DNA of 64,000 nucleotides from an uncultured Candidatus Saccharibacteria bacterium (GCA_964403725.1 CAYOHI010000002.1:21644-85643), one strand, 5' to 3'. Positions 23,887 to 41,605 are shown, counted from the first letter of the stretch. Notes: generated by a model from the sequence alone, not told the origin. A program made the numbers and translations.

Positions 23887-23889
23887 TTT

Positions 23890-24510: not shown

Positions 24511-24520
24511 TTAATTAAAA

Positions 24521-24940
24521 ATGAATCTTAAATCAATTTTATCAATTTTTTCAAAGAATTCTCTAGATCAGGATAAGAAGCAGAAGATAATGATAGGCGC
24601 CTTTGTCGGTGTCGTCGTAGCTATTGTCGCGATCCTGTATTTCGGCATGTGGCGTTCGCCGTCAATTCCTGATGATGCGCTTATGGATGAAGGAGTACCT
24701 GGTGGCGAATTGGGCATGATTGAAGATCCAACAATGATTGGAGATGGTTTTGAAAATACTGAAGCTATTGCGATGCCTAGTGGTGGGAGTAATTTTGTTG
24801 GAGATATCATTAACAAAATCAATTTTGATACTAGCTTTTTGAAAACATCTCGTTTCCAGGATTTAAAAGCTTATGGGGAATGGCCTTTGGAAATAGGGGA
24901 AAAAGGTCGGCTAAACCCATTTTTACCACACGGTCAGTGA
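24521..24940 (+). CDS. hypothetical membrane protein in the pilus locus (PilP-position)
   Basis: TM anchor. Assigned by position only. Confidence 0.3.
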   Translation: MNLKSILSIFSKNSLDQDKKQKIMIGAFVGVVVAIVAILYFGMWRSPSIPDDALMDEGVPGGELGMIEDPTMIGDGFENTEAIAMPSGGSNFVGDIINKINFDTSFLKTSRFQDLKAYGEWPLEIGEKGRLNPFLPHGQ

Positions 24941-25006
24941 GCAGCTAACAATGAATAGTAAATAATATTGTTTTTGTTTCCTGTTCATTGCTTGTTGTGA
25001 TGGTTT

Positions 25007-26638: not shown

Positions 26639-27077
26639 AATTAAATATATGAAAAACAAAGGATTTACTTTAATAGAGCTTTTAATAGTTATTGCCATAA
26701 TTGGAATTTTGGCAACAACGGCTTTTTACAGCCTGAGTTCTATTAAATCTAAAAGCAGGGATGCCCGTCGGGTAGCAGATATTAGGGCAGTCCAGCAAGG
26801 ATTATCAATGTATTACAATGATAATTCTCTTTATCCTGATTCAGGAGGGAGTGCCATTGAGATTGATGGAAGCGGTGACGCCATGTCACAGGCTTTGATT
26901 GATGAAGAGTTAATGAACAGTATTCCACTTGATCCGTTTAATAAGGATGTGGATGGAACAGTGTATAAATACTATTATGAATCACTTGATGATGAAAGTG
27001 ACTATGAGTTAACTTTTTATCTAGAGACAGATTCAATTCAAAATAGGTCACAAGGAGAAAATATAGTTAGTCCATAA
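26628..27077 (+). CDS. type IV pilin
   Basis: MKNKGFTLIELLIVIAIIGILA prepilin signal. Confidence 0.7.
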   Translation: MRNKIKYMKNKGFTLIELLIVIAIIGILATTAFYSLSSIKSKSRDARRVADIRAVQQGLSMYYNDNSLYPDSGGSAIEIDGSGDAMSQALIDEELMNSIPLDPFNKDVDGTVYKYYYESLDDESDYELTFYLETDSIQNRSQGENIVSP

Positions 27078-27086
27078 TATAAAAAT

Positions 27087-27458
27087 ATGAAAAAAGTATT
27101 AATCATAGAAGATGATCCGTTTTTAAGTGAAATGTATGCTGCTAAGTTTGCTGAAAGCGGCTTTGAAGCAGAAGTAGCTTCAGATGGCGGTCAAGGTCTG
27201 ACCAAGGTTGCTGAGTTCAAGCCAGATCTTGTTCTTTTAGATATTGTTTTGCCAAAGATGGATGGTTTTGAAATCTTGAAAAAGATTAAGGAAAACGATG
27301 AATTAAAAGGAATTCCTGTCATCCTTCTGACTAATTTGGGCCAGAAGAATGAAGTGGAAAAGGGATTATCTTTGGGAGCTGAGGAATATATTATTAAAGC
27401 TCACTTTACGCCAACGGCTGTAGTAGCCAAGGTGAAAGATGTGTTGAATAAACTATAA
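27087..27458 (+). CDS. single-domain response regulator receiver (CheY/PilH-like)
   Basis: DD acid pocket, phospho-acceptor Asp in LVLLDIVLPKMDG, conserved Thr and Lys positions. Confidence 0.75.
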   Translation: MKKVLIIEDDPFLSEMYAAKFAESGFEAEVASDGGQGLTKVAEFKPDLVLLDIVLPKMDGFEILKKIKENDELKGIPVILLTNLGQKNEVEKGLSLGAEEYIIKAHFTPTAVVAKVKDVLNKL

Positions 27459-27460
27459 TT

Positions 27461-28531
27461 ATGAGTGAATTCCAAAAAAAACTTGATGATATTTTAGATA
27501 ATGCGATCAAGGATGGAGCTAGTGATGTTCATCTTTCAGCTGGCCGGGCGCCAACATTCAGGGTGCATGGCTCTCTGATTACTTATGATAAATATCCCGT
27601 TTTGTCAAAAGAAGATACCGAGCAGCTTGCCTTCATTATCCTTCCTGAAGAGCGTAAAGAACAATTTTTGAGCCAGAGAGATATTGATCTATCTTACTCC
27701 CATCAGGATAAAAGCAGATTCAGGGTTAACGTCTATCATCAATTAGGCAGTATTAGCATCGCCATGCGTCTGATTCCTAATAAGATTAGGACAATCGATG
27801 AATTGAACCTACCGGCTGCTATTCATAATTTCAGCAGCGTGCCTCAGGGATTCTTCTTGGTAGTTGGTCCTTCTGGCCAGGGTAAATCAGCTGCTTTGGT
27901 AGCCATGGTTGATGAGATAAACCACACTCGCCAAGATCACATAATTACCATTGAAGATCCGGTAGAATATCTATTCAAGCAAGACAAGTGCATTATTGAC
28001 CAGCGTGAAGTTGGTGAAGATGTCCAGAACTTTCACCGTGGTCTAAGAGAGGCTCTGCGCCAAGATCCAGACGTAATTATGATCGGTGAAATGCGTGATC
28101 CAGAAACTATCAGCAGCGCTGTCACTGCAGCTGAAACAGGTCATCTGGTTTTGGCTACCCTGCATACCAATACGGCTGCCCAGACAATTGACAGGATTAT
28201 CGATAGCTTTCCTCCTCACCAACAGAATCAGATCAGAATACAATTATCATCAACTATTTTAGGCATTCTTTCCCGTCGTTTAATTCCTTGCCTGAAAGGC
28301 GAAGTAATTAACGCAGTTGAATTGATGATCGCTAACTCAGCTGTCAGGAATCTAATTAGGGAAGGAAAAACGCATCAGATTGATATGATTATTGAAACTG
28401 GTTCTGAAGAAGGAATGATTTCTTTAAACCGTTCTTTGGCTGATTTGGTTAATAACGGAATGATAACTAGAGAACATGCTGAGATGCATTCAACTAATAT
28501 TAATGAATTAAGAATGTTACTGAGACAATAA
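27461..28531 (+). CDS. pilT: twitching-motility retraction ATPase PilT
   Basis: GPSGQGKS Walker A, PilT-type Asp/His boxes, AIRNLIREGK motif. Confidence 0.9.
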   Translation: MSEFQKKLDDILDNAIKDGASDVHLSAGRAPTFRVHGSLITYDKYPVLSKEDTEQLAFIILPEERKEQFLSQRDIDLSYSHQDKSRFRVNVYHQLGSISIAMRLIPNKIRTIDELNLPAAIHNFSSVPQGFFLVVGPSGQGKSAALVAMVDEINHTRQDHIITIEDPVEYLFKQDKCIIDQREVGEDVQNFHRGLREALRQDPDVIMIGEMRDPETISSAVTAAETGHLVLATLHTNTAAQTIDRIIDSFPPHQQNQIRIQLSSTILGILSRRLIPCLKGEVINAVELMIANSAVRNLIREGKTHQIDMIIETGSEEGMISLNRSLADLVNNGMITREHAEMHSTNINELRMLLRQ

Positions 28532-28539
28532 TATAGATT

Positions 28540-29745
28540 ATGAAATTTAATTATATTGTCAGAAACAAGGAGGGTGAAACGCAATCAGGAGTAATAGAGG
28601 CTATTAATAAGCAGACTGCCTTAAAGGCTCTTCAAGATCGCGATCTTATAATTGTCAGACTTCAAGGAATTGACGAAGGTCCTCTTTTTTCCAAAAGGAT
28701 TAAGTTTTTTGAGAGAGTTAAGCGTAAAGAAATCTTTGTTTTCTTTCGCCAGTTGGCTATTTTAGTTGACGCTAACGTTCCTTTGGTTCAATCTTTAAAA
28801 TCATTGGGCAAACAGGTTGATAGTGAGTACTTTAAGGAAATTATTTTAGAAGTAGCTAATGATATTGATGGCGGAGAAGCTTTTTCCAAGGCTTTGTCAA
28901 AATATCCAAAAGTTTTTTCCAAGTTTGCCATTAACCTGATGAAAACAGGCGAGGTCAGCGGACGCCTTCAGGAATCATTGATTTATTTAGCTGATCATCT
29001 TGAGAATGAATATTATTTAATTTCAAAAGTTAGAGGGGCTATGACTTACCCTCTTTTTATTATGGGTGCGTTTTTAATTATCGGCGTATTGGTGATGGTT
29101 TTAGTTATTCCTCAATTAACTTCCATTTTAACAGAAGCTGGACAGGAGTTGCCTTGGTCGACTAAAATTGTCATTTTTTTAAGTGAAGCTACTAGGAAAT
29201 GGGGCTGGTTGATGTTACTTGCTAGTATTGCAGCCTTTATTGCTTTCTGGAGGTATAAGAGCACTCCTAAGGGCAGGGCTATCTGGGATACGGTCAAGTT
29301 AAAAATCCCAATTTTTGGCAAAATTCTTCAAAAGACATACTTGGCTCGAATAGCTGATAACTTGAGCGCTTTAATTAAAGGGGGCGTTTCAGTTATCCAG
29401 AGCCTGAATGTTTCTGGGGAAGTGGTGGGCAACTCTGTCTTCAAGGCTATTCTTTTCCAAGCCAGGGATGAAATTAAGGTAGGACGGACTATTAGCTCTT
29501 CTTTAGAACAGCATGAAGAATTTCCTCCTTTATTCACTCAGATGATAAAGACCGGAGAACAGACTGGCAAGTTAGACAGTATTTTAGGAAAGTTAAGTAC
29601 GTTTTATAATAAAGAGGTGGCTAATGTAGTTGATAATTTAAGTCAATTAATCGAACCGCTTCTACTTGTAATGCTGGGCATTGGAGTAAGTATTTTGGTA
29701 TTTTCAGTATTTATGCCTATTTATAATCTAGCTGGAGGAATGTAA
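28540..29745 (+). CDS. pilC: type IV pilus platform protein PilC (GspF family)
   Basis: Two T2SS-F domains and three TM segments. Confidence 0.85.
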   Translation: MKFNYIVRNKEGETQSGVIEAINKQTALKALQDRDLIIVRLQGIDEGPLFSKRIKFFERVKRKEIFVFFRQLAILVDANVPLVQSLKSLGKQVDSEYFKEIILEVANDIDGGEAFSKALSKYPKVFSKFAINLMKTGEVSGRLQESLIYLADHLENEYYLISKVRGAMTYPLFIMGAFLIIGVLVMVLVIPQLTSILTEAGQELPWSTKIVIFLSEATRKWGWLMLLASIAAFIAFWRYKSTPKGRAIWDTVKLKIPIFGKILQKTYLARIADNLSALIKGGVSVIQSLNVSGEVVGNSVFKAILFQARDEIKVGRTISSSLEQHEEFPPLFTQMIKTGEQTGKLDSILGKLSTFYNKEVANVVDNLSQLIEPLLLVMLGIGVSILVFSVFMPIYNLAGGM

Positions 29746-29782
29746 AAATTAAAGGTCGGGGTTAATTAAAACAAGGGGAAAA

Positions 29783-30232
29783 ATGTTAAAAATCTTAAGA
29801 CAAAAAAATAGAGGTTTTACGTTGATTGAACTATTGGTAGTTATTGCCATTATTGGAACATTAGCTACTGTTGTTTTAGTTTCTTTAAATGAAGCCAGGA
29901 GCAAAGCGCGTGATGTTAGGCGATTGGCTGATTTAAGGCAACTGGCTTTAGCTTTGGAATTGTATTATGATACTAGTGGTGCCTATATTGATTCCGGTGG
30001 AGTATGTGTCGTGGCCAATGAAGCGAATATGGGCGATCTGACACCTGACTATATCGGCTCCATGCCAGCTGATCCGGGAGCGACTACTGAATATTATTAT
30101 GGAGCAGCTACTGATGAGCAAGCATATGTCTTGCGAGCAGTAATGGAAGGAACCGTGCCAGATGGCTCTTATACGGTTGATGAGTTCGGCTGTAGCTGTG
30201 ATCAGGCCAGTGAATATTGTATCAGGCCATAA
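29783..30232 (+). CDS. type IV pilin with C-terminal disulfide pair
   Basis: RGFTLIELLVVIAIIG prepilin signal. C-terminal GCSCDQASEYCIRP. Confidence 0.7.
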   Translation: MLKILRQKNRGFTLIELLVVIAIIGTLATVVLVSLNEARSKARDVRRLADLRQLALALELYYDTSGAYIDSGGVCVVANEANMGDLTPDYIGSMPADPGATTEYYYGAATDEQAYVLRAVMEGTVPDGSYTVDEFGCSCDQASEYCIRP

Positions 30233-30296
30233 ATTAATTATTGGTTAACAAAGGTCGAGTAATTAGATTTTAAATTTCATCTATTTACGAAAGGGG

Positions 30297-30758
30297 GTGA
30301 AAAAAATGATAAAGTATTTTCACGAAAAGAAAGTCCAGAAAGGTTTTACATTGATTGAACTATTAGTAGTTATCGCTATTATTGGTGTATTGGCTACTAT
30401 CGTATTAGTTTCTCTTAATACAGCTCGAAGCAAGGCACGTGATAGTCGAAGGGTTAGTGATATGAGACAGTTGGCTTTGGCTTTAGAGATGTATTACGAT
30501 GATAATGATGCTTATATTGATTCAGGTGCAGCATGTGTGGCAGCAACTGAAGCTAACTTAGGCGGCCTAACACCTGACTATATGGGAACTCTACCATCAG
30601 ATCCAGGAACAGGCTCATATTCTTACGGAGCAGATGCTACTGAACAAGACTACGTTTTAAGAGCAGTAGTAGAAAACTCTTTGCCTGATGGCTCTTATAC
30701 AACGGATATTTACGGTTGTAGTTGTGACCAAGCAACAGAATATTGTATTAGGCCTTAA
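30297..30758 (+). CDS. type IV pilin paralog (tandem duplicate)
   Basis: KGFTLIELLVVIAIIG signal. C-terminal GCSCDQATEYCIRP. Strongly resembles the pilin at 29783..30232. Confidence 0.7.
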   Translation: MKKMIKYFHEKKVQKGFTLIELLVVIAIIGVLATIVLVSLNTARSKARDSRRVSDMRQLALALEMYYDDNDAYIDSGAACVAATEANLGGLTPDYMGTLPSDPGTGSYSYGADATEQDYVLRAVVENSLPDGSYTTDIYGCSCDQATEYCIRP

Positions 30759-30800
30759 TTAGTTTTTAAACAGTCTGGTAACCAGAGACCTCATGAGATA

Positions 30801-31592
30801 ATGGAGGAATTATCTCGTGGGGTTAGGGTTGTCAGACTGTTTGCTTCTATTATGTTTTTAATTATTTTCATTTTAGGCTTGTTAATTGGCAGTTTTCTTA
30901 ATGTAGTAATTTGCCGATTGAAAATTAAGCAGACAATTCTTTTTAATCGTTCCTATTGTCCGAAATGCGGGAATGTTTTGAAATGGCATGATCTGATTCC
31001 CTTATTCAGTTTTTTGATTCAAAAAGGGAAATGTCGCTATTGCGGGAAAAAAATTAGCTGGCAATATCCTTTGGTTGAATTGGCTACGGGACTGTTATTC
31101 GTTTTAGTTTTTTACAAGTTTTTTCCTGATTATTTAAATTTGACCTATCACTTGATTATTGTTTCATTTTTAATAATTGTTTTTGTTTATGATTTAAAGC
31201 ATTATTTAATTCTTGATAAGATTGTTTTTCCAGCAGCAGTTATTGTCTTTATTTATCAGATTATAAATGGTAATTATTTCAATCCCTTATTAGCTGCAAT
31301 ATCAGCCAGTGGATTTTTCTTAAGTTTGGTTCTTTTTTCAAAAGGAAAATGGATGGGTTTAGGAGATGTAAAATTCGCTTTTTTCATGGGCTTGTTTTTA
31401 GGTTGGCCGAATATTTTATTGGCTTTGCTTTTATCTTTTGTTTCAGGAGCTATTATTGGTATAGTGTTAATTTCTTTTGGCAAGAAGGGAATTAAATCTG
31501 AAATTCCTTTTGGGCCCTTTTTGGTCGGAGCAACTGTTTTGACAATGTTTTACGGGGGAGATATAATTAGAATGTATTTAGGTTTCTTGTAA
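30801..31592 (+). CDS. pilD: prepilin peptidase PilD (A24 family)
   Basis: CPKCGN...CRYCGKK zinc motifs. Catalytic Asp in DLKHYLILD and GLGDVKF. Confidence 0.85.
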   Translation: MEELSRGVRVVRLFASIMFLIIFILGLLIGSFLNVVICRLKIKQTILFNRSYCPKCGNVLKWHDLIPLFSFLIQKGKCRYCGKKISWQYPLVELATGLLFVLVFYKFFPDYLNLTYHLIIVSFLIIVFVYDLKHYLILDKIVFPAAVIVFIYQIINGNYFNPLLAAISASGFFLSLVLFSKGKWMGLGDVKFAFFMGLFLGWPNILLALLLSFVSGAIIGIVLISFGKKGIKSEIPFGPFLVGATVLTMFYGGDIIRMYLGFL

Positions 31593-31622: not shown

Positions 31623-32105
31623 ATGAATAAAAAAATATATACAATTCTTTTTTTAATAGTTGTTTTGTTTCTTGGTGGATATTATTATTTCTACTTCCAG
31701 AATTCAGAAGTAAAAACACAAGATGATCAGAATGAAGTAGTCCAAGAAGAACAAAACGGAGAAGTTGAAGTATCAGGGGGTGGCGAATGTCCAATTGGGG
31801 TTAATAGGATTATTGATGGTGCTTTTCAAAAAACTGAAGATGGTTTTATCTATCTCCAAATTGAAGGTCAAGATTCTGTAGAGATGATTAAAGTAACGGA
31901 TGATACTTCTTTCTTGAAAATAGATCTTACATCATCAATGGATGTTATTGATCAATCAAATATCACTGTGGACGAATTAGGGGAAGGAAATCAGCTTTCA
32001 GTCATATCTCTTTGCAATGAGTGTGCTGAAAATGAGGAGGGATGTATTGAAGAAAAAACAGCTTTAACAGTCAGATATATGAATGTTGAAGGCGAAAGGG
32101 AATAA
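31623..32105 (+). CDS. secreted hypothetical protein
   Basis: N-terminal TM/signal segment. Acidic, Cys-containing C-terminal domain. Confidence 0.35.
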   Translation: MNKKIYTILFLIVVLFLGGYYYFYFQNSEVKTQDDQNEVVQEEQNGEVEVSGGGECPIGVNRIIDGAFQKTEDGFIYLQIEGQDSVEMIKVTDDTSFLKIDLTSSMDVIDQSNITVDELGEGNQLSVISLCNECAENEEGCIEEKTALTVRYMNVEGERE

Positions 32106-32107
32106 AT

Positions 32108-32515
32108 ATGATGACTAAAATAAAAGGCAATACTTTAAAATTTTCTTTTAATCTCAAAGATTATCCGTTAGAAGCTCTTTACGGAGCAGCCTATGTCTTT
32201 CTTGATAAAGTCTATTTGTTTTTAAACAGTAAGCCTAAAGAAAAGATAGAGGTTTCTCTAAAAGGCAAGAAAAAGTTAAGTAAAAAACAATTAGAGAAAT
32301 TAAAGGGGGAGTTCTTAAACGAACTCTTTAATTATACTATCAGGATTAAGATGGCCAAGGGTAATCGGAAAATTAGGGAATTTATCATTGGCCAGGCTTT
32401 AATTTCGGCTTATGGCAGCGAGTCCAATCAGGAAGATGAAATGAAATATAAGGATGATCCTTTAGGTATCGCTATGTCTTGGGAGGATAAGTACGAGAAA
32501 AAAGGCAAGAAATAA
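32108..32515 (+). CDS. hypothetical protein immediately upstream of the Hxs-like module
   Basis: 135 aa, no recognisable domain. Start is adjacent to the upstream gene's stop. Confidence 0.3.
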   Translation: MMTKIKGNTLKFSFNLKDYPLEALYGAAYVFLDKVYLFLNSKPKEKIEVSLKGKKKLSKKQLEKLKGEFLNELFNYTIRIKMAKGNRKIREFIIGQALISAYGSESNQEDEMKYKDDPLGIAMSWEDKYEKKGKK

Positions 32516-32718
32516 TGCAGATAAAATTTAATAAAAAAATATACAGCTTAAAAGCTATAAAATTAGCCATTAAAGACTATCAGGGATTGGCTGATTTTAA
32601 TTTGGAGAAAAAAGGAGAATATATTTTAGTTAAATTAACTAAAATTGACAAAGAATACAAAGGAATAATTAAAGATGAATTCTGTAATTATATCCTTTCT
32701 TTAATGAAAACAGATTAA
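32515..32718 (+). CDS. small hypothetical protein (HxsD-position accessory candidate)
   Basis: 67 aa, overlaps the previous stop and lies 4 nt before the radical SAM gene. Assigned by position only. Confidence 0.3.
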   Translation: MQIKFNKKIYSLKAIKLAIKDYQGLADFNLEKKGEYILVKLTKIDKEYKGIIKDEFCNYILSLMKTD

Positions 32719-32721
32719 TTT

Positions 32722-34173
32722 ATGTCCCTTGATTCAGATAAAATTAAATACAACCAATTAGGATTCTTTCGTTTTAAAGAGTTCAAGAATAAATATCTTT
32801 TAACCAATGATGTTGGTCAATATTTATTTTTAACAAAAAAGGAATTTAAAAGTTTCTTGGAGAATAAATTGGAAAAAGATAAAGAGCCATATTTGTCTTT
32901 GAAAAAAAAGAATTTTCTAAAAAACGAATTAGACTTAACAGAATCAATTGACAGATACAGGTCAAAGAAGGATTTTCTTTTTGGCGGACCTAGTTTGCAT
33001 ATTATAGTGGTAACCTTGAGATGTAACCATAGATGCGTTTATTGCCATGCTAGTGCCCAGGCTATGGACAAAGAAGAGCTTGATATGGATGAAGTAACAG
33101 CCAGAGAGACAGTTGATAAGATTTTTGAAACAACTAGTCCCTTTGTAGCCATTGAATTTCAAGGCGGTGAGCCATTAGTCAATTGGCCAATAGTCAAATT
33201 TATTATTGAATATGCCCAGAAGAAGAACAGGAAAATAAAGAAAGATCTGGAGTTGCGCTTGGTCTCTAATATGTCTTTGATGACTAAGGAAAAATTTGAT
33301 TATTTGATCAAGAAAAAGGTGAGTATGTGTGTGTCTTTAGATGGATCTGAGAAAATACACAACAAAAACCGACCCTTGGTAGGCGATAAAACTGGGAGTT
33401 ACAAACATGCAGCCAAATGGGTTAAGAAATTCTATAAGCTCTATCCTCAATTGAGAAAGAAAGGATATATTTTCAAAATGGGCGTGGCTATTACAGTCAG
33501 TCGATTTTCACTGCCTCATTACAAGAAAATGGTTGATGAATTTATGAAATTGGGCTTTAACGATATTTACTTGCGTCCTCTAAATCCTTTCGGCTTTACT
33601 AAAAATCATTTTCAGAAAATCGGCTATGGCGTTAAGGATTACATGAAATTCTATAAAGGTGCTCTGGATTACATGATTGATTTAAACCTTAAGGGTAAGG
33701 AATTCAAGGAAAAAACAGCAATTACTTTTCTGACCAAAATTTTAACCAGAAATGATCCTAATCACTTAGATTTTCGCTCTCCTTGCGGAGCAGGTATTGG
33801 TCAATTAGCTTATAATTATAACGGAGATGTCTATACTTGCGATGAAGGAAGAATGCTATCTATGATGGATGATGAAAGTTTTCGTTTAGGCAATGTTAAA
33901 GAAAATACTTATCAGGAAATGGTAGGTAATCCAGTAGTTAGAACGATGTGCACAGCCTCTTGTTTAGAAGGCTTGCCTCATTGCAGTGATTGCGTTTACA
34001 AGCTCTATTGCGGGGTCTGTCCGATTTATAATTATTTTGAACAGGGTAATATTTTTGGCCAGATGCCGACTAATGAAAGATGCCAGATAAATATGGCTAC
34101 TTTGGATTTATTATTTGAAAAACTGCAAGATAAAAAAGCAGGACCTGTTTTGAAGTCTTGGCTGGATAAATAA
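32722..34173 (+). CDS. radical SAM/SPASM-domain peptide maturase candidate (HxsB/HxsC-like)
   Basis: CNHRCVYC (CxxxCxxC) cluster. C-terminal SPASM-like Cys array (CGAG..YTCDEG...CTASC...HCSDC...CGVCPIYN). ~85-aa N-terminal extension. Encoded directly upstream of the His-Gly-Ser repeat peptide. Confidence 0.75.
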   Translation: MSLDSDKIKYNQLGFFRFKEFKNKYLLTNDVGQYLFLTKKEFKSFLENKLEKDKEPYLSLKKKNFLKNELDLTESIDRYRSKKDFLFGGPSLHIIVVTLRCNHRCVYCHASAQAMDKEELDMDEVTARETVDKIFETTSPFVAIEFQGGEPLVNWPIVKFIIEYAQKKNRKIKKDLELRLVSNMSLMTKEKFDYLIKKKVSMCVSLDGSEKIHNKNRPLVGDKTGSYKHAAKWVKKFYKLYPQLRKKGYIFKMGVAITVSRFSLPHYKKMVDEFMKLGFNDIYLRPLNPFGFTKNHFQKIGYGVKDYMKFYKGALDYMIDLNLKGKEFKEKTAITFLTKILTRNDPNHLDFRSPCGAGIGQLAYNYNGDVYTCDEGRMLSMMDDESFRLGNVKENTYQEMVGNPVVRTMCTASCLEGLPHCSDCVYKLYCGVCPIYNYFEQGNIFGQMPTNERCQINMATLDLLFEKLQDKKAGPVLKSWLDK

Positions 34174-34237
34174 GTTTTGTGTTATCCACAGGCGGATTAG
34201 TTTTATTTAAAAAATTTTGCTATAATAAAGTAAATAA

Positions 34238-34558
34238 ATGAAAAAGACAAAATTACCTCAAATCAAGAAAGACATTAAGGCTTTCTTAACGAGCGAAGAA
34301 GGAAGGATAAATAAAAAGAAAGTAGCCAAAGTGGCTATGGGTCTTTTGGCTTTAGGAGTTGGTTTAGCTGGTGCTATGAAGCCAGATCCAACTTCAGCTG
34401 CCTGTTCTCATGCCTCTCACGGCTCACACGGATCCCATAGTTCCCACGGATCCCACGGCTCTCACGGCTCACACGGTTCTCATGGAAGTCATGGATCACA
34501 TGGTAGTCACGGCTCACACGGCTCACACGGCTCACACGGATCTCATAGTAATTATTAA
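34238..34558 (+). CDS. His-Xaa-Ser repeat precursor peptide (HxsA-like) with 14 His-Gly-Ser repeats
   Basis: 106 aa: Lys-rich leader, hydrophobic VAMGLLALGVGLAGAM segment, then SHASHGSHGSHSSHGSHG...(HGS)n...SHSNY. Confidence 0.65.
   Translation: MKKTKLPQIKKDIKAFLTSEEGRINKKKVAKVAMGLLALGVGLAGAMKPDPTSAACSHASHGSHGSHSSHGSHGSHGSHGSHGSHGSHGSHGSHGSHGSHGSHSNY
34406..34549 (+). repeat. in-frame 9-nt tandem repeat (TCN CAY GGN)x~15 encoding the SHG repeats
   Basis: Direct reading shows tctcacggc / tcacacgga / tcccatagt / tcccacgga... Third positions vary, so units are non-identical at DNA level. Confidence 0.8.
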
Positions 34559-34571
34559 TCTATAAATCATT

Positions 34572-35441
34572 ATGGGTTTTCTAAAAGAAAACAAATTATT
34601 AATAGGAATAGTAGTAGTGGTTTTGGTAGTTGTTGCTGGAATGGCAGCAATTTTTAATTGGCAAAAAACTCATCTTCCTCTAGATATTTCTCCAGAAGGA
34701 GTGAAAGCTAAATGTATTGAAGATATTACAGATATGACTGATGATGAATTAATCAATGAAGTTGATAGCTTGAAATATCCGGGAGAGGAAATATCTCCAG
34801 GAGAAACTAGAATGAATTACGGTCATAAGAATATTGTTAATTATTTAATCTGTAGATCAGTTAATGATGAAAATTACAGTAGAGCAAAAAGCTATATAGA
34901 AGGAGTGAATATCCAGGAGGAAAATAGAAAGGTGTCATTAAGTCGATTAAATGAGACTTACAATGAAGAAAATATGAATTTTTTAGAGTTATTAGCTAAT
35001 GGTAATTTAGATGATAACTGTCCTGATAAATTATCAAATCTTTGTCTTGAGAAAGCTAAGAATATATTAGGTGTTAATGAAAAAGTAGAAGAAGATTGTA
35101 ATAATATATGTGAAATTGCCAAAAATTCAAGCGAAGATGAATATTTAGAGAGCAAATTATTGAATTTAATTACTCCATCAGATGTCATATTCTACCCAGA
35201 ATCAATTATTGACGATTCTAATAAGATCATATCTCCAGAGTGGATATACGCCATAATATATAGATACAAGAAAGAAGAAGGAATACTAAAGACATGTGAA
35301 GTATTCGAGGGTGATCAAAAGAATGAATGTCTATCTTATGCAAATGATATTATCGATAGAATCAAAAAAACTGAAGGTGATTGTAGTTCTATTAGAGAAG
35401 ATTTAAGTCAGGTTATTTGTGATATTGTTGATGATAAATGA
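34572..35441 (+). CDS. membrane-anchored Cys-containing hypothetical protein
   Basis: N-terminal TM anchor. Acidic extracytoplasmic domain with several Cys pairs. Confidence 0.4.
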   Translation: MGFLKENKLLIGIVVVVLVVVAGMAAIFNWQKTHLPLDISPEGVKAKCIEDITDMTDDELINEVDSLKYPGEEISPGETRMNYGHKNIVNYLICRSVNDENYSRAKSYIEGVNIQEENRKVSLSRLNETYNEENMNFLELLANGNLDDNCPDKLSNLCLEKAKNILGVNEKVEEDCNNICEIAKNSSEDEYLESKLLNLITPSDVIFYPESIIDDSNKIISPEWIYAIIYRYKKEEGILKTCEVFEGDQKNECLSYANDIIDRIKKTEGDCSSIREDLSQVICDIVDDK

Positions 35442-36265
35442 GTTTAGAAAATAAATATCTGGATTGGAGTGGGGTTGTTCCGCTTTGGGGGGAGTATACT
35501 TCGCCCTTTAGGCCGTCTGAAAAAGAAATATTGATTTATTCTGAATATATAAAGGAGTTGGGTGAAAATATATTATTACTCGGTGCTACTCCAGAAATCA
35601 GAGAAGTTTTATCAAAATTTAAATTAAAAGTAACACTTTTAGATTCGTCCCTTGATATGATCAAGGGTATGTTTAATTATGGGAAGATTGATCGTAAAAA
35701 TGAAACCTGGATCAATGATAATTGGCTAAAAATAGATAAGGTTTTTGAAAAAAATAATTTTGATCTTATTTTAGGAGATTTAGTTTTGAGGAATATTGAT
35801 GCTAGCCAACAAGAGAAGTTTCTTAAAAAAACAGCAAATGTTTTAAGTAGTGATGGCCTACTTTTGTTAAGGATTCATTGTTGCGATTGTTATTGTGGTC
35901 AAGACGCAGATAAAGTAGTTGATGAATTTTTTAATAATTTCTCAAATGAAAATAAGAAAATAGCTGAAGACTTATTAACTTCTCGCTTATTTGATTGTTT
36001 TACTAATAAGAAAAACAAGGCTATTGATAAAAATAAATTCATTGATTATGTAAATAGTAAATTAAAAGAAGAAAAACAAGATCAGATAGAAATATTTAAT
36101 CGGATTAGCAGTAAATGGTGTGGTAATGATAGGACTTGGATACAGAGGACTAGTGATGAGATAAATAAAATGATTAATAAATATTTTAAAATTGAATATA
36201 TTTTCGCGGGAAATGATTATCCTGATTCTGAATTCTACCCGATATATGCAATTGTAAAGAAATAA
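35438..36265 (+). CDS. hypothetical protein, possibly class I methyltransferase fold with a degenerate SAM-binding loop
   Basis: ILLLGATPE / VTLLDSS / FDLILGDLVL / LSSDGLLLL follows motif I, post-I, II and III spacing, but lacks GxGxG. Confidence 0.3.
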   Translation: MSLENKYLDWSGVVPLWGEYTSPFRPSEKEILIYSEYIKELGENILLLGATPEIREVLSKFKLKVTLLDSSLDMIKGMFNYGKIDRKNETWINDNWLKIDKVFEKNNFDLILGDLVLRNIDASQQEKFLKKTANVLSSDGLLLLRIHCCDCYCGQDADKVVDEFFNNFSNENKKIAEDLLTSRLFDCFTNKKNKAIDKNKFIDYVNSKLKEEKQDQIEIFNRISSKWCGNDRTWIQRTSDEINKMINKYFKIEYIFAGNDYPDSEFYPIYAIVKK

Positions 36266-36308: not shown

Positions 36309-37688
36309 TTAGTACGAGAATGCGTTAAGATTAGTCGACAGATTGCGCATATGTTCTAGTGTATCAGATATTTCTTGATGAGAAGTTTTACAATTATATT
36401 TAATCCAGTCTTTGATAACGTTGCTCCAGTTTATAATATCTTTATCAATATATTTATTTCCAGTTTTTTTCTTAATCATATCAAATGACATTGAATTGGG
36501 GAGAGGCGTTAAATAGGACGGTACAATTAGATTATTAGGATCAGATTGTATTATTCTTTCAGCCAGTTTAATAGTCTTTTTAAGGCCTTTACTGGTTTCT
36601 CCAAGATTACCTAAGACAAAATAGCCTTCTATTGGAATTTTGTATTTTATTAATAACTCAACAGCTTTTTCATTCATGGCAGAAGTTGTTCCCTTGTTCA
36701 TAAGTTTGAGACAGTCGTCATCATTGCTTTCTATGCCGATGAATAGCTGTCTGACTTTTATTTCTGATAGTTTTTTAACTATTTTTTCATCAGCGAGATG
36801 ATTTATTCTTGCTTGAATTTTTAAATAAGGTGCATTCTTATATTTCTTTGCTTCTCTGTAGTATTTGTTAAACCATTTAATATCACCTAATAAATCATCT
36901 GTTGTTTCCCATATGTAATCAACTTTGTATTTAGAAGCTAGATTATTGTATTCAGACCAAACAGTAGCTGGGTCTTTGAAAATGTGTTCATTGTGCATCA
37001 ATGAGCAAAAAAGACACCATTTATTGTTATTCGCTCTCCAGGCACATCCTTTTTGAGAATAAGTGGTAAAAGGATTTTTGTAGTTTGAATGTGGAAAGTT
37101 TTTCTGATAGCTTTTAAAATATTTTTGAGGATCAATTATATCCTTGTTTATCTCTAATTTAGAAAAAGGAGTTATTATTAATTCATTAATCTTTATCTTA
37201 TCATTATCGCAATAGGCGATATTTTTTATTTCTGATAATTTTTTTTGAGTTATATATTCATAGAATGCTTTTTCTCCATCGCCGCGGATGACTATATCAA
37301 CGCAATAGTCTTTGGAATATATGCCTCTGTTCTTTAATATTTCCTGGTAAATTGAAGAAGGATAATGTCCGCCAAAGACCACTTTGGCTTTTATTTTTTT
37401 GCATTCTCTGGCTAGGATTAATGATTTTTCATATCCAGTAAACATCGATCCTATTCCTACGATGGTTGGTTTGAATTTTTTGATTTCTTTCTTTATTTCG
37501 TTGGTGGATAATAGCTGGTCATCCAGGATTAATAATGGAGTATTAGGTAGCTTTTCTTTGAGGTAGGATCCTATTATATTGACTCCCAAAGGAAAATGAG
37601 GTCCTTGTCGAAGTTCAAAGATATTTTTTGGTTTTGAATTGTAAGGCAGAGGATTAACTACGTTAATCAGTATTATTTTTTCTCCCAT
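36309..37688 (-). CDS. B12-binding-domain radical SAM protein (class B-like)
   Basis: N-terminal cobalamin-binding-like Rossmann region (IVGIGSMFTGYEKS..VVFGGHYPS). Then CAWRANNNKWCLFC (C-x9-C-x2-C) in the radical SAM core. Confidence 0.55.
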   Translation of the reverse strand: MGEKIILINVVNPLPYNSKPKNIFELRQGPHFPLGVNIIGSYLKEKLPNTPLLILDDQLLSTNEIKKEIKKFKPTIVGIGSMFTGYEKSLILARECKKIKAKVVFGGHYPSSIYQEILKNRGIYSKDYCVDIVIRGDGEKAFYEYITQKKLSEIKNIAYCDNDKIKINELIITPFSKLEINKDIIDPQKYFKSYQKNFPHSNYKNPFTTYSQKGCAWRANNNKWCLFCSLMHNEHIFKDPATVWSEYNNLASKYKVDYIWETTDDLLGDIKWFNKYYREAKKYKNAPYLKIQARINHLADEKIVKKLSEIKVRQLFIGIESNDDDCLKLMNKGTTSAMNEKAVELLIKYKIPIEGYFVLGNLGETSKGLKKTIKLAERIIQSDPNNLIVPSYLTPLPNSMSFDMIKKKTGNKYIDKDIINWSNVIKDWIKYNCKTSHQEISDTLEHMRNLSTNLNAFSY

Positions 37689-38599
37689 CCTCTTATTAAT
37701 CCTTTCTTTTTATAGCTAGTTTTGTCTTTTAGTTTATTTTTATTATGAGCTATTTTTCTGACATAGCATGAGACACATTCTCCACAATGATCATCATCCC
37801 ATTTAATGCAACTCCGAGCTCTATCTATCGGTATATCTTGATCTGTCGCCCATTTTAGTAAATCTGCTTTTGAGAGGAAAAAGCCAAATTCTTTTTCTAA
37901 TGGCAGGGAAGTGACTTGCCAGGAGTAGTCATTCATCAAAGAACAAACAGATAAGTTATTAGTTCTCATAGCTGTTAGTGTCTCATCTCTCATGACATAG
38001 CCATCTTCGGCAACAATGGCTGTAAAGATGTTTCTTACTTTGATATTTTCCTTGATCTTAAGGAAGATTGCGTATTGTACCCCATATGAAGTTAAAAGAT
38101 TAGTGTACATCGGGATCCCTAAATGTTGGCCTAGTTTATTAACTGGCTTGCTGGAAACATCAATGATTGGGAAGCGAATCTCCATCGGCGGGATATAGGC
38201 GTTCATTTTTTTAACTTTATGCCAATATTTAGGATATCTTTTTTTATAATATTTGGAAAAGTAGTCTACAGACTTTTCTTCAAAGGCAACTCTTTTTTGT
38301 CCTCTTCTTAAAAATACTGGATGAACGTGTACTTTATAGACTTCCATTAGATAAGCCCAGGTAGTGACGCTATCCATTCCTCCAGAAAACATTAATATTA
38401 CATGAGAATTAGCTAAGGGCCTTTTCATTACATGGCCTTTTTGTTCTTTAAATATATTTTCAATTGTCTGGATGAGCTTGGGGTCTTCTAATTTTCTTGA
38501 ATTTAAGAGATTTTGAATTTCTTTTTTTGTTTTTGTTTTGAATTTATTCATATTATTTCTTGATATAGTTTTGTTTGATAATTCCCTCCCACCAGTCAT
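37673..38599 (-). CDS. QueC-like PP-loop ATPase (7-cyano-7-deazaguanine synthase family) with N-terminal extension
   Basis: VILMFSGGMDSV PP-loop and C-terminal Zn-ribbon CIKWDDDHCGECVSCY matching the QueC C-terminal CxxC..CxxC. 308 aa, longer than typical QueC. Confidence 0.5.
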   Translation of the reverse strand: MTGGRELSNKTISRNNMNKFKTKTKKEIQNLLNSRKLEDPKLIQTIENIFKEQKGHVMKRPLANSHVILMFSGGMDSVTTWAYLMEVYKVHVHPVFLRRGQKRVAFEEKSVDYFSKYYKKRYPKYWHKVKKMNAYIPPMEIRFPIIDVSSKPVNKLGQHLGIPMYTNLLTSYGVQYAIFLKIKENIKVRNIFTAIVAEDGYVMRDETLTAMRTNNLSVCSLMNDYSWQVTSLPLEKEFGFFLSKADLLKWATDQDIPIDRARSCIKWDDDHCGECVSCYVRKIAHNKNKLKDKTSYKKKGLIRGWEKK

Positions 38600-39134
38600 T
38601 AGATTTTTGTTTTAGAATCTTATTACCTATTAATTTTCCATGTTTAGTAGTTAATTTCTTTACTGAGAAATTCATCCATTTCTTTGCTTCTTTTAATCCG
38701 TCATCATATTGCTGCTTTTCAGTCAGTAATTCTTCTAATATGTCTGCATCATGTATAATTTTAATTTCCTTGGTTTTGTTTTTTTGATATTCTTTAAAGA
38801 TATTATTAATATTTTTTTCGATAGGTAAATCTTTTAAAGTATCCTTTAGTGCCTTTAATTCATTTATTTTTAAATAGCATCTGTTAACCAGATCAGCATC
38901 GCCGGTTCTGGTTTCTGGAATGTCATGGAATAGGCACATTAGCAGGGTTTTTTCTATATCGGCTTTTTCCAGAGTGGCTAATATATAGCCTATAATAGTC
39001 ACGCGAAAACTGTGTTCAGCTATGGAATTTTTCTGTTTTTTTAATTTGCTTCTTGTTATTTTATTCAAATAGCCAACTTCAAAAAGAAAATCAGCTATCT
39101 TTTTTGTATTTAATTTTTTATTTCCATGGTTCAT
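38553..39134 (-). CDS. HD-domain phosphohydrolase (YfbR-like 5'-deoxynucleotidase family)
   Basis: H...HD....D signature: EHSFRV...LFHDIPETRTGD. Confidence 0.65.
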   Translation of the reverse strand: MNHGNKKLNTKKIADFLFEVGYLNKITRSKLKKQKNSIAEHSFRVTIIGYILATLEKADIEKTLLMCLFHDIPETRTGDADLVNRCYLKINELKALKDTLKDLPIEKNINNIFKEYQKNKTKEIKIIHDADILEELLTEKQQYDDGLKEAKKWMNFSVKKLTTKHGKLIGNKILKQKSNDWWEGIIKQNYIKK

Positions 39135-39669
39135 ATCTTATTAAGGGATTTAATTGATATTTTTTAAATTGGTCTTTAGTTTTTCTATCCATTGAATCAA
39201 GCAGAAAGCTAAAGCCAATGATCCTACCTCTTTTAATTCTTTTTATTAGCTTAATGGCAGCTTTGGCGTGCTGGCCAGTAGCAAACCAATCATCGATAAT
39301 CAGTATCCTGTCTTTTTTGTTGATTATATACTCATTGTCTTCAATTTCCAAAGCTTTTTTCTGTTTACTGTAATCAAAGAATGATTCAGTATATATTTTA
39401 TGCAGTTTCTTTATATGTGGATCAGGTGTATATATATTACCTTTTTTTCTTATGGTAACCAAACCAGCCTTGAGGATATATGCAACGCTTGAAGCAAGTA
39501 GGAAACCACGCGATTCGATTCCGATTACTTTAGTAATGTCTGATTTTAAAAATGGTTTTGCTAGTGATTTTGATATTTTTTGGAAAAGTAATTTATCAGA
39601 AATCGGGCTGTAAATAGAGCATTCCTCGTGCAATCTTATTATTTTTTCCTTATCTTTTTTGGTTAACAT
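39118..39669 (-). CDS. phosphoribosyltransferase (adenine PRTase-like)
   Basis: PRPP-binding motif ILIIDDWFATGQHA. Confidence 0.55.
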   Translation of the reverse strand: MLTKKDKEKIIRLHEECSIYSPISDKLLFQKISKSLAKPFLKSDITKVIGIESRGFLLASSVAYILKAGLVTIRKKGNIYTPDPHIKKLHKIYTESFFDYSKQKKALEIEDNEYIINKKDRILIIDDWFATGQHAKAAIKLIKRIKRGRIIGFSFLLDSMDRKTKDQFKKYQLNPLIRYEPWK

Positions 39670-40358
39670 ACTTCTATGCTGCCCAAGGCTATTTTAATGG
39701 CCTTATTTAAATATTTGTTAAAAGTTTTTTTATCTAAATATTTATGTTCAACTTTTTTGTTTTTGGTACTTATCTTATCTATTCCTACGAGTATGCTGTC
39801 GACGGATATTTTGTGTTTCTTGCCGAAATAGAAGAGAATGCTGCTTTCCATTTCTATTGCGCCTATTTTTTCTTTTTTCCATTTTTTGATATCACGAAGC
39901 AGATAAGGGTTGTAAAAAGCATCTACTGTAACAATTTTTTCTCCTTTTATTTCTTTGAAATTGCTGTTTGTGAGAATTGTTTTAATTGAGTTGTTTGTAT
40001 AATGCTTGGTGGTGCCGTCGTTTATCAATATAGATCTTGCAAATATTATATCGCCAAGTTTTTTATTATTGATAAAGCAGCATGAACCGATTCTGATTAT
40101 CTTTTTAATCTTATGCTGGGATAATAGTTCCTCTAATAGGATTGCAGCAGAAGGAGTTCCTATTCCACTAGACTGGATTGTTATTTTATTCTTCTTGTAG
40201 TATCCGGTATAAGCGCTAAAGCTGCGTTCTTTGATTATTGATTTGTAATTTTTTAAATATTTTTTAGCAATCAATTCAGCTCTTTCAGGATCTCCTACTA
40301 AAATTATTTTATCGCTGTAGTCCCTATTTTTGATTTTTAGGTGGAATTCCTTATTCAT
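39663..40358 (-). CDS. purine/uridine nucleoside phosphorylase family protein (PNP/MTAP/DeoD-like)
   Basis: ILVGDPERAELIA and SSGIGTPSAAILLEEL motifs of the PNP_UDP_1 fold. Confidence 0.55.
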   Translation of the reverse strand: MNKEFHLKIKNRDYSDKIILVGDPERAELIAKKYLKNYKSIIKERSFSAYTGYYKKNKITIQSSGIGTPSAAILLEELLSQHKIKKIIRIGSCCFINNKKLGDIIFARSILINDGTTKHYTNNSIKTILTNSNFKEIKGEKIVTVDAFYNPYLLRDIKKWKKEKIGAIEMESSILFYFGKKHKISVDSILVGIDKISTKNKKVEHKYLDKKTFNKYLNKAIKIALGSIEVC

Positions 40359-40360
40359 GA

Positions 40361-41605
40361 TTAGAAATTTATGAAATATATTTTAGAGGCGATTATTTCT
40401 TTAGTTTTATCTGTGAATTTTATATTTATTTTTTTAAAAAACATACTGTATTTATCTTTGAAGTATTCAGTATCTTTCTCTTTTTCTGCCAATACAGTGA
40501 CAACTAAATTATCCTTAGAAGTGATTAATTCTATGCCTGATTTGTCTTTGTATTTGTTTAAGAATTTTTCTTTGAATTTTAAGTTTCTCTGTATTTTTTC
40601 TTGGAATCCTTTTCTGCCTAGAGATAGTATGGTTAGAAGGGAGGCAACTGGCGAGATGGCAGTTCTAGTGGATAGTAGAGTGTTGTCGTTTCTGCTCAGA
40701 AAATCTATTGGCTCGGCGATCAGGTTTAATAGCTTTCTTCTGTGTAAGACTAATCCTGCTGGACAAGGGGTATGTCCAAATTTATGAAAATCAACGGCCA
40801 AGGCTTTGATTTCAGAATATTTGAAGGGAGAGAAACTGTTGTCTGTAAACGGATTAATCAAACCGCTCATGGCAGCATCTATCCAGCAAAAGAATTCTAC
40901 ATGTTTGTATTCTTTTTTGATTGCTCTGATAGTTTGTACTGTTTTCTCTATATTATCATCTGTGCCAGTTAGGGTGTATCCTAGGGTTAAGGGAATGATA
41001 AATCCTTTTATGTCTTTCTTGATTAATTTCTTTATTTTCTTTGATAAATCAAAACAATCTAGGTTCCACTCCTTTTCATTTACAGCAATGATTTCATTTT
41101 TAATGCCCACTATTTTGGCTGATTTTCTGATAGAATAGTGAGTTAAATTATTACTCAAGAATCTGATTTGATTAAAGTCTATCTTTTTCTTTCTTAGCCA
41201 GTCTCTTGCCAACCAGGCAGAAAATATGTTTCCTTCTGTTGAGCCGGTGGTTGAATAGCCTGTTAAGTCTCGGTCTTTGGCGTTATACAGATCTATCATT
41301 TTAAAAACTAATTCTTTTTCAATCGATTCATTGGTTGTTTCAGAATATTCTGATTCGGTTGTATTGCCCAATAGTACGGGATTGTGCTTGATTAGGTCTT
41401 GCCAAGCTTTGATAGATATCTGGGATGGGGTTGATACTAAATGGGCGATTTTAGCTGATTTTCTAAATTCTTTTAAATGTTTTTTAAGTTTTTGTATTTT
41501 AAGCTCTATATTCTTCTTTGTTTCTGGGTTTTTATTAAAATTAAATCCATCATTATTGTTGTGATTGGATTTTGGTAATAAGTTTTTTTTAGGTTGTTTT
41601 TTCAT
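40361..41605 (-). CDS. PLP-dependent group II decarboxylase-like protein
   Basis: GYSTTGSTEGNIFSAW and DFHKFGHTPCPAGLVL resemble the fold-type I decarboxylase Gly-rich and HK (PLP-Lys) regions. Confidence 0.45.
   Translation of the reverse strand: MKKQPKKNLLPKSNHNNNDGFNFNKNPETKKNIELKIQKLKKHLKEFRKSAKIAHLVSTPSQISIKAWQDLIKHNPVLLGNTTESEYSETTNESIEKELVFKMIDLYNAKDRDLTGYSTTGSTEGNIFSAWLARDWLRKKKIDFNQIRFLSNNLTHYSIRKSAKIVGIKNEIIAVNEKEWNLDCFDLSKKIKKLIKKDIKGFIIPLTLGYTLTGTDDNIEKTVQTIRAIKKEYKHVEFFCWIDAAMSGLINPFTDNSFSPFKYSEIKALAVDFHKFGHTPCPAGLVLHRRKLLNLIAEPIDFLSRNDNTLLSTRTAISPVASLLTILSLGRKGFQEKIQRNLKFKEKFLNKYKDKSGIELITSKDNLVVTVLAEKEKDTEYFKDKYSMFFKKINIKFTDKTKEIIASKIYFINF

Follow-up and report, generated by a model that had tools for sequence, protein, structure and literature searches.

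What is made by a gene that ends in tandem His-Gly-Ser units and lies directly behind a radical S-adenosylmethionine (SAM) maturase gene? The gene pair is located in a 64,000-nucleotide stretch of DNA (the window; 34% GC) from an uncultured Candidatus Saccharibacteria bacterium (GCA_964403725.1 CAYOHI010000002.1:21644-85643). A first-pass annotation, made from the DNA alone, described the pair as a His-Xaa-Ser (Hxs)-type system of non-canonical composition and as a candidate for a novel peptide-modification system. Judged by its profile matches, the locus is the Candidate Phyla Radiation (CPR) form of a catalogued HxsA4-type Hxs variant. The favored reading, with a probability of about 0.7, is a Patescibacteria HxsA4-type His-Xaa-Ser system in which the maturase HxsB modifies the leader-guided precursor HxsA4 and the His-rich product is exported.

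The canonical HXS system was predicted by Haft & Basu in 2011 (as cited in PMC9062424). Li et al. (Nat Commun 2026; PMC13128918) describe HxsD-HxsB-HxsC-HxsA as an antiphage system that blocks phage DNA entry. In that work, canonical HxsA is composed of a signal peptide, five basic HxS repeats, and a peptidoglycan-binding domain. Its N-terminal processing needs HxsB, HxsC, and HxsD, all three, and in E. coli HXS a +8 Da modification of HxsA maps to SHRSS, the last HxS repeat. HxsC occurs in a complex with HxsD. In E. coli the pair is proposed to be the core module, and the system does not work without HxsC. The gene order D-B-C-A is found in 99.6% of the described systems, 99.7% belong to Pseudomonadota, and they are often on mobile elements. 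In vitro reconstitution of E. coli HXS failed, partly since HxsA alone is insoluble, and the radical chemistry is unsolved (PMC13128918). The first-pass statement that the chemistry on His-Xaa-Ser peptides had not been established is therefore still correct for the exact chemistry, but an antiphage role, processing, and the +8 Da change are now shown for canonical HXS.

The maturase gene (32722-34173, + strand) encodes HxsB, a radical SAM/SPASM protein of 483 aa with Pfam matches to Radical_SAM and SPASM (24.4 bits for SPASM; gathering score 21.5). The HxsB model TIGR03978 scores 527 bits (cut-off 370) over profile positions 3-466 of 466, in agreement with an Hxs-type system, and the protein is 36.6% identical to the annotated Aeromonas hxsB. 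Both this open reading frame (ORF) and the precursor ORF lie where they were first placed, and the motif CNHRCVYC is at residues 101-108. The C-terminal array, originally counted as seven Cys, possesses nine, eight of them invariant. The Cys residues that are invariant in 45 homologues are C101, C105, and C108, followed by C355, C373, C414, C421, C424, C430, C433, and C454. A protein identical to HxsB is already present in NCBI, JGI, and ENA (e.g., ENA ERZ23499079 scaffold_1064). Close Patescibacteria homologues from Portnoybacteria, Falkowbacteria, Magasanikbacteria, and Nealsonbacteria are named HxsB and HxsD by NCBI/JGI.

The AlphaFold2 model of HxsB (predicted local distance difference test score, pLDDT, 90.7) contains an N-terminal beta3-alpha3 domain (residues ~17-87), the radical SAM barrel, and the SPASM domain. 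Its best solved structural neighbour is the leader-binding sactipeptide maturase CteB (5wgg; Foldseek, 480 aligned columns, E 2.8e-22), with an alignment along the entire model, and CteB is also the best solved neighbour by sequence (E 1.3e-17). The neighbours that follow are anSME, TigE, ChlB, and SuiB. A Pfam scan of HxsB gave no PqqD match. Among NCBIfam families, those next after HxsB are the thioether-forming maturases PapB, SCIFF, and QhpD, all far under their cut-offs.

The precursor gene hxsA4 (34238-34558, + strand) encodes 106 aa and was assigned by its NF038313 match, orthologue comparison, and codon and hydropathy analysis. HxsA4 is composed of a basic conserved leader (aa 1-31, IKKDIKAFLTSEEGRINKK), a hydrophobic segment (aa 32-47), KPDPTSAA-Cys56, the HxS array, and an HSNY end. 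The full protein is MKKTKLPQIKKDIKAFLTSEEGRINKKKVAKVAMGLLALGVGLAGAMKPDPTSAACS-HAS(HGS)2HSS(HGS)11-HSNY. The repeat (nt 34409-34543) is tandem, as first read, and is made up of 15 HxS units, 13 of these HGS, in place of the ~14 consecutive HGS units claimed. Given the local amino acid composition, chance alone would give ~0.1 HxS in a protein of such length. The core has 17 His and no Lys/Arg, its Xaa is only Gly, Ala, or Ser, and there is no domain C-terminal to the repeats.

The 15 units are encoded by 10 distinct 9-nt sequences that use the synonymous codons CAC/CAT, GGC/GGA/GGT, and TCA/TCT/TCC/AGT. Because synonymous codons change between units, the repeat is held at the protein level and is not a DNA microsatellite. 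HxsA4 matches NF038313 (NCBIfam) with 72.3 bits (cut-off 55) over profile positions 1-90 of 93. The canonical HxsA model TIGR03979 (cut-off 121.65) has no match at E<=0.01. The proposed membership in the HxsA class thus stands for the HxsA4 type and fails for the canonical type.

Orthologues were compared in a set of 12 related loci (given L numbers here) from ~11 independent CPR lineages, including Falkowbacteria, Portnoybacteria, and others, with HxsB identity of 48-75%. Their HxsA4 proteins score 62-88 bits on NF038313. The orthologues of 11 other loci agree with the window protein in frame, N-terminal region, and C-terminal Tyr, and differ in repeat number, which ranges from 6 to ~45. Conserved elements are the leader LPxIKKDIKAFLTSEEGxINKK, the 16-residue hydrophobic segment, K(P/A)D..SA.C, the H(G/A/S)S units, and the C-terminal HS(S/N)Y, so that the leader and hydrophobic segment noticed at first are both features of the family. 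A single Cys is conserved among the orthologues (Cys56 in the window protein). A lipoprotein reading of Cys56 was rejected, as the preceding residues (SAA, EAN, NAG, SAD, SAS) form no lipobox and the Cys sits 8 residues past the hydrophobic segment. A six-frame survey of the 64-kb window found no HxS run or leader-like ORF other than hxsA4.

Could the repeat be a collagen-like Gly-X-Y tract, or a meaningless low-complexity ORF beside an unrelated radical SAM gene, e.g., of the anSME type? HxsA4 does hit Pfam Collagen with 29.6 bits (gathering score 27.2), together with weak Scl-adhesin matches. The middle Gly is not conserved, though: orthologues in L004, L007, and L013 use HAS/HSS extensively, which breaks the Gly-every-third rule. 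Because Ala and Ser replace Gly in this way, the Collagen match is an artefact of (GSH)n. Moreover, the HxsA4 model passes its cut-off and the ORF is always directly downstream of HxsB. A housekeeping anSME identity, raised in the first-pass annotation as a possible refutation, is contradicted by a TIGR03942 score of 80.8 bits (cut-off 349.45) against 527 bits for HxsB, and no sulfatase was noticed among the genes neighbouring HxsB. This explanation is rejected as extremely improbable.

The two small genes upstream of hxsB, first listed as adjacent ORFs, are also members of the system. HxsD (135 aa, 32108-32515, + strand) matches TIGR03976 with 56.5 bits (cut-off 50), and PF27806 is assigned to an identical gene. 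The protein carries a strongly conserved CPR-specific C-terminal tail, NKKIREYI...DDPLGIAxPWEEKYG, that is not present in canonical HxsD. It is modelled (pLDDT 82) as a small alpha/beta fold for which the PDB offers no informative neighbour, and a sequence search of the PDB likewise gave no match. HxsD-like (HxsD'; 67 aa, 32515-32718, + strand) is a single HxsD-core-like domain whose start overlaps the hxsD stop. NF038315 matches it over the full profile with 78.4 bits (cut-off 41). Pairwise BLAST of HxsD and HxsD-like gave no match, and their relation is visible by profile-profile comparison only (hhalign, E 7e-5, probability 63%).

A search against the Hxs models, which the first-pass annotation had suggested, thus finds HxsD, HxsD-like, HxsB, and HxsA4 all over their cut-offs. 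Because these four core genes pass NCBIfam cut-offs, the locus is a member of a known Hxs subtype and not a new class. For the NCBIfam HxsA4 subtype (NF038313, NF038315, NF038332), HxsA4 and HxsD-like pass, as do their orthologues; HxsC4, whose model is labelled 'rare', does not. The models of this subtype are annotation rules only.

HxsD, HxsD-like, and HxsB are present in 12/12 related loci, followed by one or two HxsA4/HxsA3-type genes where the contig continues; the HxS-repeat ORF is then directly downstream of HxsB. An HxsC gene between B and A is found in 0/12, and in the window likewise no gene lies between HxsB and HxsA4. The operon has no HxsC gene, in line with the first-pass annotation. 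Because the HxsC-less composition is seen in every related locus and dedicated NCBIfam models exist, it is the standard architecture of the CPR subtype. What had looked like a non-canonical and novel arrangement is the usual order in all 12 related CPR loci, with NF038313 and NF038315 as its own models.

An alternative is that the cassette is a decaying, non-functional remnant of canonical HxsDBCA that lost HxsC, an enzyme that is essential in E. coli HXS and missing from the operon. Set against this, the HxsC-less order occurs with intact ORFs in ~11 lineages, down to 48% HxsB identity. The catalytic Cys residues are all invariant, and an HxsD-like component and the CPR-specific HxsD tail have been gained. 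Decay is very improbable.

The leader was followed beyond these loci by searching HxsA4 residues 1-57 against 1.84 billion representative proteins (E<=1e-3). The search returned 71 representative clusters, 66 of which are proteins of 45-177 aa. At least three HxS are present in 37/66, and the remaining cores are Cys-rich, GGWC-terminated, or Pro-rich. The C-terminus is Tyr, Trp, Phe, or GGWC in 45/66. A single leader with many cores is the pattern of leader-guided ribosomal peptide maturation. For one member without HxS, P0256, the contig of 631 bp is too short to show any genomic context.

Several related loci carry further precursors. A second, shorter precursor of 76-102 aa follows the HxsA4 gene in L002 (11911-12141), L003 (11978-12217), and L016 (11896-12204); these score best as HxsA3 (NF038309). 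The window carries one precursor only. In L005 (11455-19224), the core is made up of CH-rich repeats ending in CPACAGCDSEI, and extra SPASM maturases are inserted around the precursor gene. The L011 precursor (11453-11935) is an HxS array followed by a CVCFACCSGGGC tail. Cys-containing cores together with extra SPASM maturases suggest added thioether-type tailoring in such relatives. A 366-aa radical SAM protein between HxsB and the peptide in L005 was considered as HxsC4 and rejected; it is a generic SPASM protein and not HxsC-like.

The CPR cassette can be set beside canonical HXS, for which the hxsD-B-C-A locus of Aeromonas plasmid pAsa4 served as a control (HxsC 395.9 bits, HxsA 230.6 bits). 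The two share HxsB and HxsD over their cut-offs, an HxS-repeat substrate encoded downstream, an N-terminal hydrophobic export-like segment in the substrate, and an aromatic residue right behind the repeats (HYSGY in Aeromonas HxsA, HSNY in HxsA4). They differ in gene order, which is D-D'-B-A in the window, with a second HxsD-like gene and no HxsC in the operon. A 31-aa conserved leader precedes the hydrophobic segment of HxsA4. The repeats number 15, compared with 5 in the canonical protein, and no Xaa is basic. The host is a member of the Patescibacteria, and the setting is chromosomal, among pilus and biosynthesis genes.

HxsB is similar to CteB 5wgg, SuiB, PapB, QhpD, and anSME in its radical SAM core, its SPASM domain with two auxiliary-cluster Cys motifs, and its N-terminal beta3-alpha3 domain. 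Identity to CteB-type maturases is only 19-20%, and HxsA4, the substrate, combines one conserved Cys with a His/Ser array. The +8 Da mass change of canonical Hxs is not the same as the -2 Da of a thioether.

In the favored reading, maturation would take place in four steps. The N-terminal beta3-alpha3 domain of HxsB would bind the basic leader of HxsA4 (IKKDIKAFLTSEEGxINKK). Using the radical SAM cluster and the SPASM auxiliary clusters, HxsB would then put a covalent modification into the core, here taken as Cys56, the HxS array, and the conserved C-terminal aromatic residue. HxsD and HxsD-like would serve as small accessory or chaperone subunits. Finally, the hydrophobic segment would act as a signal or anchor, so that the Lys/Arg-free, His-rich core ends outside the cytoplasmic membrane. 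The HxsC step would be either dispensable or supplied by an array of HxsC-like paralogues 22-28 kb downstream. The requirement of canonical HXS for radical SAM-dependent maturation and HxsA export (PMC13128918) speaks for this scheme.

Several points weigh against it. Export is deduced solely from a hydrophobic stretch of 16 residues, and the N-region in front of it, at 31 aa, is unusually long. The HxsD fold is neither PqqD-like nor like a RiPP (ribosomally synthesized and post-translationally modified peptide) recognition element, so that HxsD has only a putative role as a subunit, and leader recognition is more likely performed by HxsB itself. Because HxsC is essential in E. coli HXS, an HxsC-less operon may work differently. 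HxsA4 is without the peptidoglycan-binding domain and the Arg-rich repeats that underlie the published DNA-binding model. The cassette lies among type IV pilus and biosynthetic genes and not in a defence island. A PADLOC scan of the cassette and its neighbours returned only generic viperin and QueC matches; as the 2023 library has no Hxs models, this speaks neither for nor against a defence role. A literature search on HxsA4, HxsC4, HxsA3, HxsA2, and HxsD-like found no papers.

As for function, homology with canonical HXS suggests that the product may hinder the entry of phage. Because the core has no basic residues and HxsA4 no cell-wall-binding domain, the DNA-trapping model published for canonical HXS may not hold here. 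The composition would fit metal binding, or a role at the surface that depends on metal or pH, at least as well as an antiphage role.

His-rich stretches are established metal binders, e.g., Hpn and HypB. HxsA4 may be viewed as mainly an extracytoplasmic peptide that binds or buffers metal (Zn/Ni/Cu/Co), with a cross-link put in by HxsB that would pre-organise or stabilise the His array. With 17 His and no Lys/Arg, the core at neutral pH would be without the positive charge invoked for DNA binding by canonical HxsA. Relatives carry Cys-rich tails (L011, L005, and several leader-family members), and the chromosomal setting is conserved and not defence-like. Against this, the cassette has no consistent neighbour that encodes a metal transporter or a metalloenzyme, and hypervariable cores and repeat numbers are more usual in conflict or surface-variation systems. 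The sole experimental function of any Hxs system is antiphage (PMC13128918). Metal binding as the main role is possible and, on balance, rather unlikely.

If HxsB is the only maturase in the operon, is an HxsC function found elsewhere? That there is only one radical SAM gene holds for the operon; a B12-binding radical SAM gene lies 1.7 kb downstream on the opposite strand, and five HxsC-like genes are at 56648-62870. For each of the five, the best-scoring NCBIfam family is HxsC or HxsC4, always under the cut-off. They span 22-28 kb downstream of the cassette.

The first array gene (56648-57541, + strand) encodes 297 aa, has a C-terminal CxxCx5C motif, and is without the N-terminal domain of canonical HxsC. 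It scores 166 bits on HxsC4 (cut-off 500) and 100 bits on HxsC (cut-off 267.9). Its orthologues lie 0.4 kb past HxsA4 in L007 (64% identity) and near the cassette in L005, L011/L015, L010/L014, L016, and L017. The next (58266-60170, + strand; 634 aa) is a tandem fusion of two HxsC-like radical SAM domains, with HxsC4 258 bits and HxsC 214 bits in two stretches each, under the cut-offs, and an orthologue in L015 (57% identity). A 284-aa protein (60167-61021, + strand; HxsC4 121 bits, HxsC 107 bits, under the cut-offs) also has an orthologue in L015. A 305-aa protein (61021-61938, + strand; HxsC4 162 bits, HxsC 100 bits, under the cut-offs) has orthologues in L014, L015, and L016.

The last gene (61941-62870, + strand; 309 aa), 27 kb from the cassette, encodes the closest relative of canonical HxsC in the window. 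It matches TIGR03977 with 189 bits over profile positions 31-289 of 292, under the cut-off of 267.9, and its orthologues score 156-182 bits. Identity to Aeromonas HxsC is 25% (E 2e-29) over HxsC residues 115-392 only. This alignment takes in the catalytic core and the C-terminal CxxCx5C, and the ~110-aa N-terminal domain is lacking. For HxsC4 (NF038332), the best window score is the 258 bits summed over the two domains of the fusion, other genes scoring 91-166 bits, and array orthologues adjacent to the cassette in other loci score 145-175 bits. No protein in the window or in the fetched loci reaches the HxsC4 cut-off.

The array is near the cassette in 7 lineages, at 0.4-22 kb on either side. 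It is downstream in L007 (0.4 kb, after HxsA4), L005 (4.6 kb), L011/L015 (12.7 kb), L010/L014 (18.5 kb), and the window (22 kb), and upstream in L016 (1.6-8 kb) and L017 (3.3 kb). In the L003 Falkowbacteria assembly, it is on another contig of the same genome. Four loci have no array within 10 kb of the cassette. The proximity is suggestive of a functional link.

The cassette would then be part of a larger conserved CPR super-cluster, in which HxsA4 is also a substrate of the HxsC-like array, and perhaps of the glycosyltransferase, kinase, and carbamoyltransferase encoded in between, with a heavily tailored exported peptide as the product. The family assignment of the five array genes and the closeness of their orthologues to the cassette in several lineages favor this, as does the absence of another candidate substrate: HxsA4 is the sole precursor-like ORF in the window, and the run 41735-62870 leaves no intergenic room for another. 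The scores far under both cut-offs and the missing N-terminal domain count on the other side. So does the array family itself, which seems more conserved than HxsB (best 120 matches >=63% vs >=52% identical) and is abundant (2156 matches at E<=1e-20), a combination that fits an independent envelope or small-molecule pathway. The array sits among glycosyltransferase, kinase, and carbamoyltransferase-like genes that could form an unrelated envelope pathway, it is not near the cassette in the four loci above, and in the window a 5.3-kb opposite-strand operon divides the two clusters. Nearness in small syntenic CPR genomes may also be inherited and not functional. The super-cluster is a tentative and unlikely proposal.

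A broader form of this proposal is a rebuilt Patescibacteria Hxs system. HxsB and two HxsD-type proteins would be a minimal leader-guided core, and the HxsC function would pass to an expanded array of N-terminally truncated HxsC-like paralogues, which moves with the cassette alongside a changing set of genes for glycosyl, acyl, and carbamoyl transfer. Such a system would yield exported, multiply tailored peptides with one leader and hypervariable His/Ser-, Cys-, or Trp-rich cores on the episymbiont surface. This is more doubtful still.

The array is the end of a 21-gene run (41735-62870, + strand; gaps -29 to +4 nt) with 11 radical SAM genes, the five of the array included. The run also includes two peptidase-U32-like genes, each followed by an unannotated gene of ~240-250 aa, an SHMT-like pyridoxal phosphate (PLP) enzyme, glycosyltransferases (GT1/GT4 and a GT28+GT2 fusion), and an APH/choline-kinase-like kinase. 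A TsaD/Kae1-like gene (53688-54707) lies beside a probable Sua5/YrdC-like gene (54704-55306), labelled from positional counterparts in L014 and L015 with PF01300; the pair resembles a split TobZ-type carbamoyltransferase. This block recurs in L014, L015, L016, and L020. In the ~1.1 kb past the last radical SAM gene (62871-64000), neither strand has an ORF >73 aa, and Rfam gives no match at its gathering thresholds. This segment may be an unannotated RNA or a degraded region.

The genes at 31623-36265 have an intergenic spacing of -4 to +64 nt. The run of a small membrane protein, HxsD, HxsD-like, HxsB, HxsA4, a membrane protein, and a methyltransferase-like protein appears to be co-transcribed. 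Upstream is a promoter-like TTGACA-17 nt-TATAAT (31539-31567, + strand) with 12/12 consensus matches. It is the sole perfect one, by consensus match only; promoter-like matches in the region do not exceed the shuffled expectation in total. An extended -10-like TGcTATAAT (34218-34226, + strand) is located 11 nt before the hxsA4 start codon, within the 64-nt gap after hxsB. It is a possible promoter for the precursor gene alone and could be chance in DNA of this GC content.

The first gene of the run (31623-32105, + strand) encodes a 160-aa protein with an N-terminal hydrophobic segment and ends 2 nt before hxsD. Weak homologues are directly upstream of HxsD in L001, L010, and L012 (25-29% identity, E 4e-8 to 4e-15). 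It is a possible accessory envelope protein. A 289-aa protein with an N-terminal membrane anchor (34572-35441, + strand) starts 13 nt past hxsA4 and has same-position homologues in L010 (32%, E 1e-34) and L011 (30%, E 1e-18); it is a candidate accessory or co-transcribed envelope protein. NCBIfam and Pfam searches gave no match for either. The SAM-methyltransferase-like protein (275 aa, 35438-36265, + strand), with a 4-nt overlap with the 289-aa gene, has weak Methyltransf_31/25/11 matches, all under Pfam gathering scores, and a 43% identical same-position homologue in L011.

Convergent with the operon, on the opposite strand, is the B12-binding radical SAM gene (459 aa, 36309-37688, - strand; PF02310 and PF04055). 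Its best NCBIfam family is the RiPP C-methyltransferase TIGR03975 (85.9 bits, well under the cut-off of 281.85), and a 36% identical homologue is downstream of the cassette in L011. It is a candidate extra tailoring enzyme. The gene belongs to an operon (36309-41605, - strand) between the Hxs cassette and the radical SAM run, together with genes for a PLP-decarboxylase-like protein and a QueC-like protein (PF06508; its C-terminus weakly resembles QatC). Judged by eye alone, HD-domain, phosphoribosyltransferase-like, and nucleoside-phosphorylase-like proteins are also present. As a whole, the operon resembles a pathway for nucleoside or deazapurine-type modification.

Directly upstream of the cassette is a complete type IV pilus set (22234-31592, + strand) with PilM-like and PilO-like proteins, two T2SSE ATPases, PilC/T2SSF, several N-methyl pilins, a response regulator, and a prepilin peptidase. 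The synteny with pilus genes is found only in the closest relatives (L001, L006, L010), with none in L002-L004, L011-L013, L016, and L017. L012, which has a homologue of the 160-aa protein, has no type IV pilus genes within 10 kb upstream. Because the synteny is confined to close relatives, no functional link between cassette and pilus is claimed. Rfam on the whole window identified four tRNAs only, none in or near the cassette. The tRNA genes at 18669-18743 and 19764-19846 (- strand) overlap the 5' ends of the mechanically called ORFs 16581-18710 and 19294-19848, and because of this overlap the true starts of these ORFs are further downstream.

Other enzymes adjoin the cassette in related genomes. 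Membrane glycosyltransferases of the PMT_2 family (GT-C, protein-O-mannosyltransferase-like) are found beside it in two distant relatives, L017 (5847-9104) and L007 (11297-13009). Speculatively, such enzymes could plausibly O-glycosylate a Ser-rich HxS array once it is exported. In Falkowbacteria and Portnoybacteria (L002/L003 13.6-17.8 kb; L013 12969-21464), acyl-AMP ligase, carrier-protein, and nonribosomal peptide synthetase genes are downstream of the cassette, along with an ORF that is FabD-like by eye. On Falkowbacteria contig 16 (L020 1-7538), a large polyketide synthase, an aminotransferase, and a phosphopantetheinyl transferase precede the HxsC-like array. In GCA_043801965.1, contigs 5 and 16 may be neighbours that are split within the polyketide synthase.

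The CPR form is compact: apart from the 106-aa substrate with its simple (HGS)n core, it has a single SPASM enzyme and two very small accessory proteins. It is possibly a simpler model for HxsB chemistry. If the link to the array is true, the locus would show the re-partitioning of a two-enzyme maturation pathway. Hxs, reported as 99.7% Pseudomonadota, is extended here to ultra-small episymbiotic bacteria, which raises the question of what His-rich surface peptides do in such bacteria.

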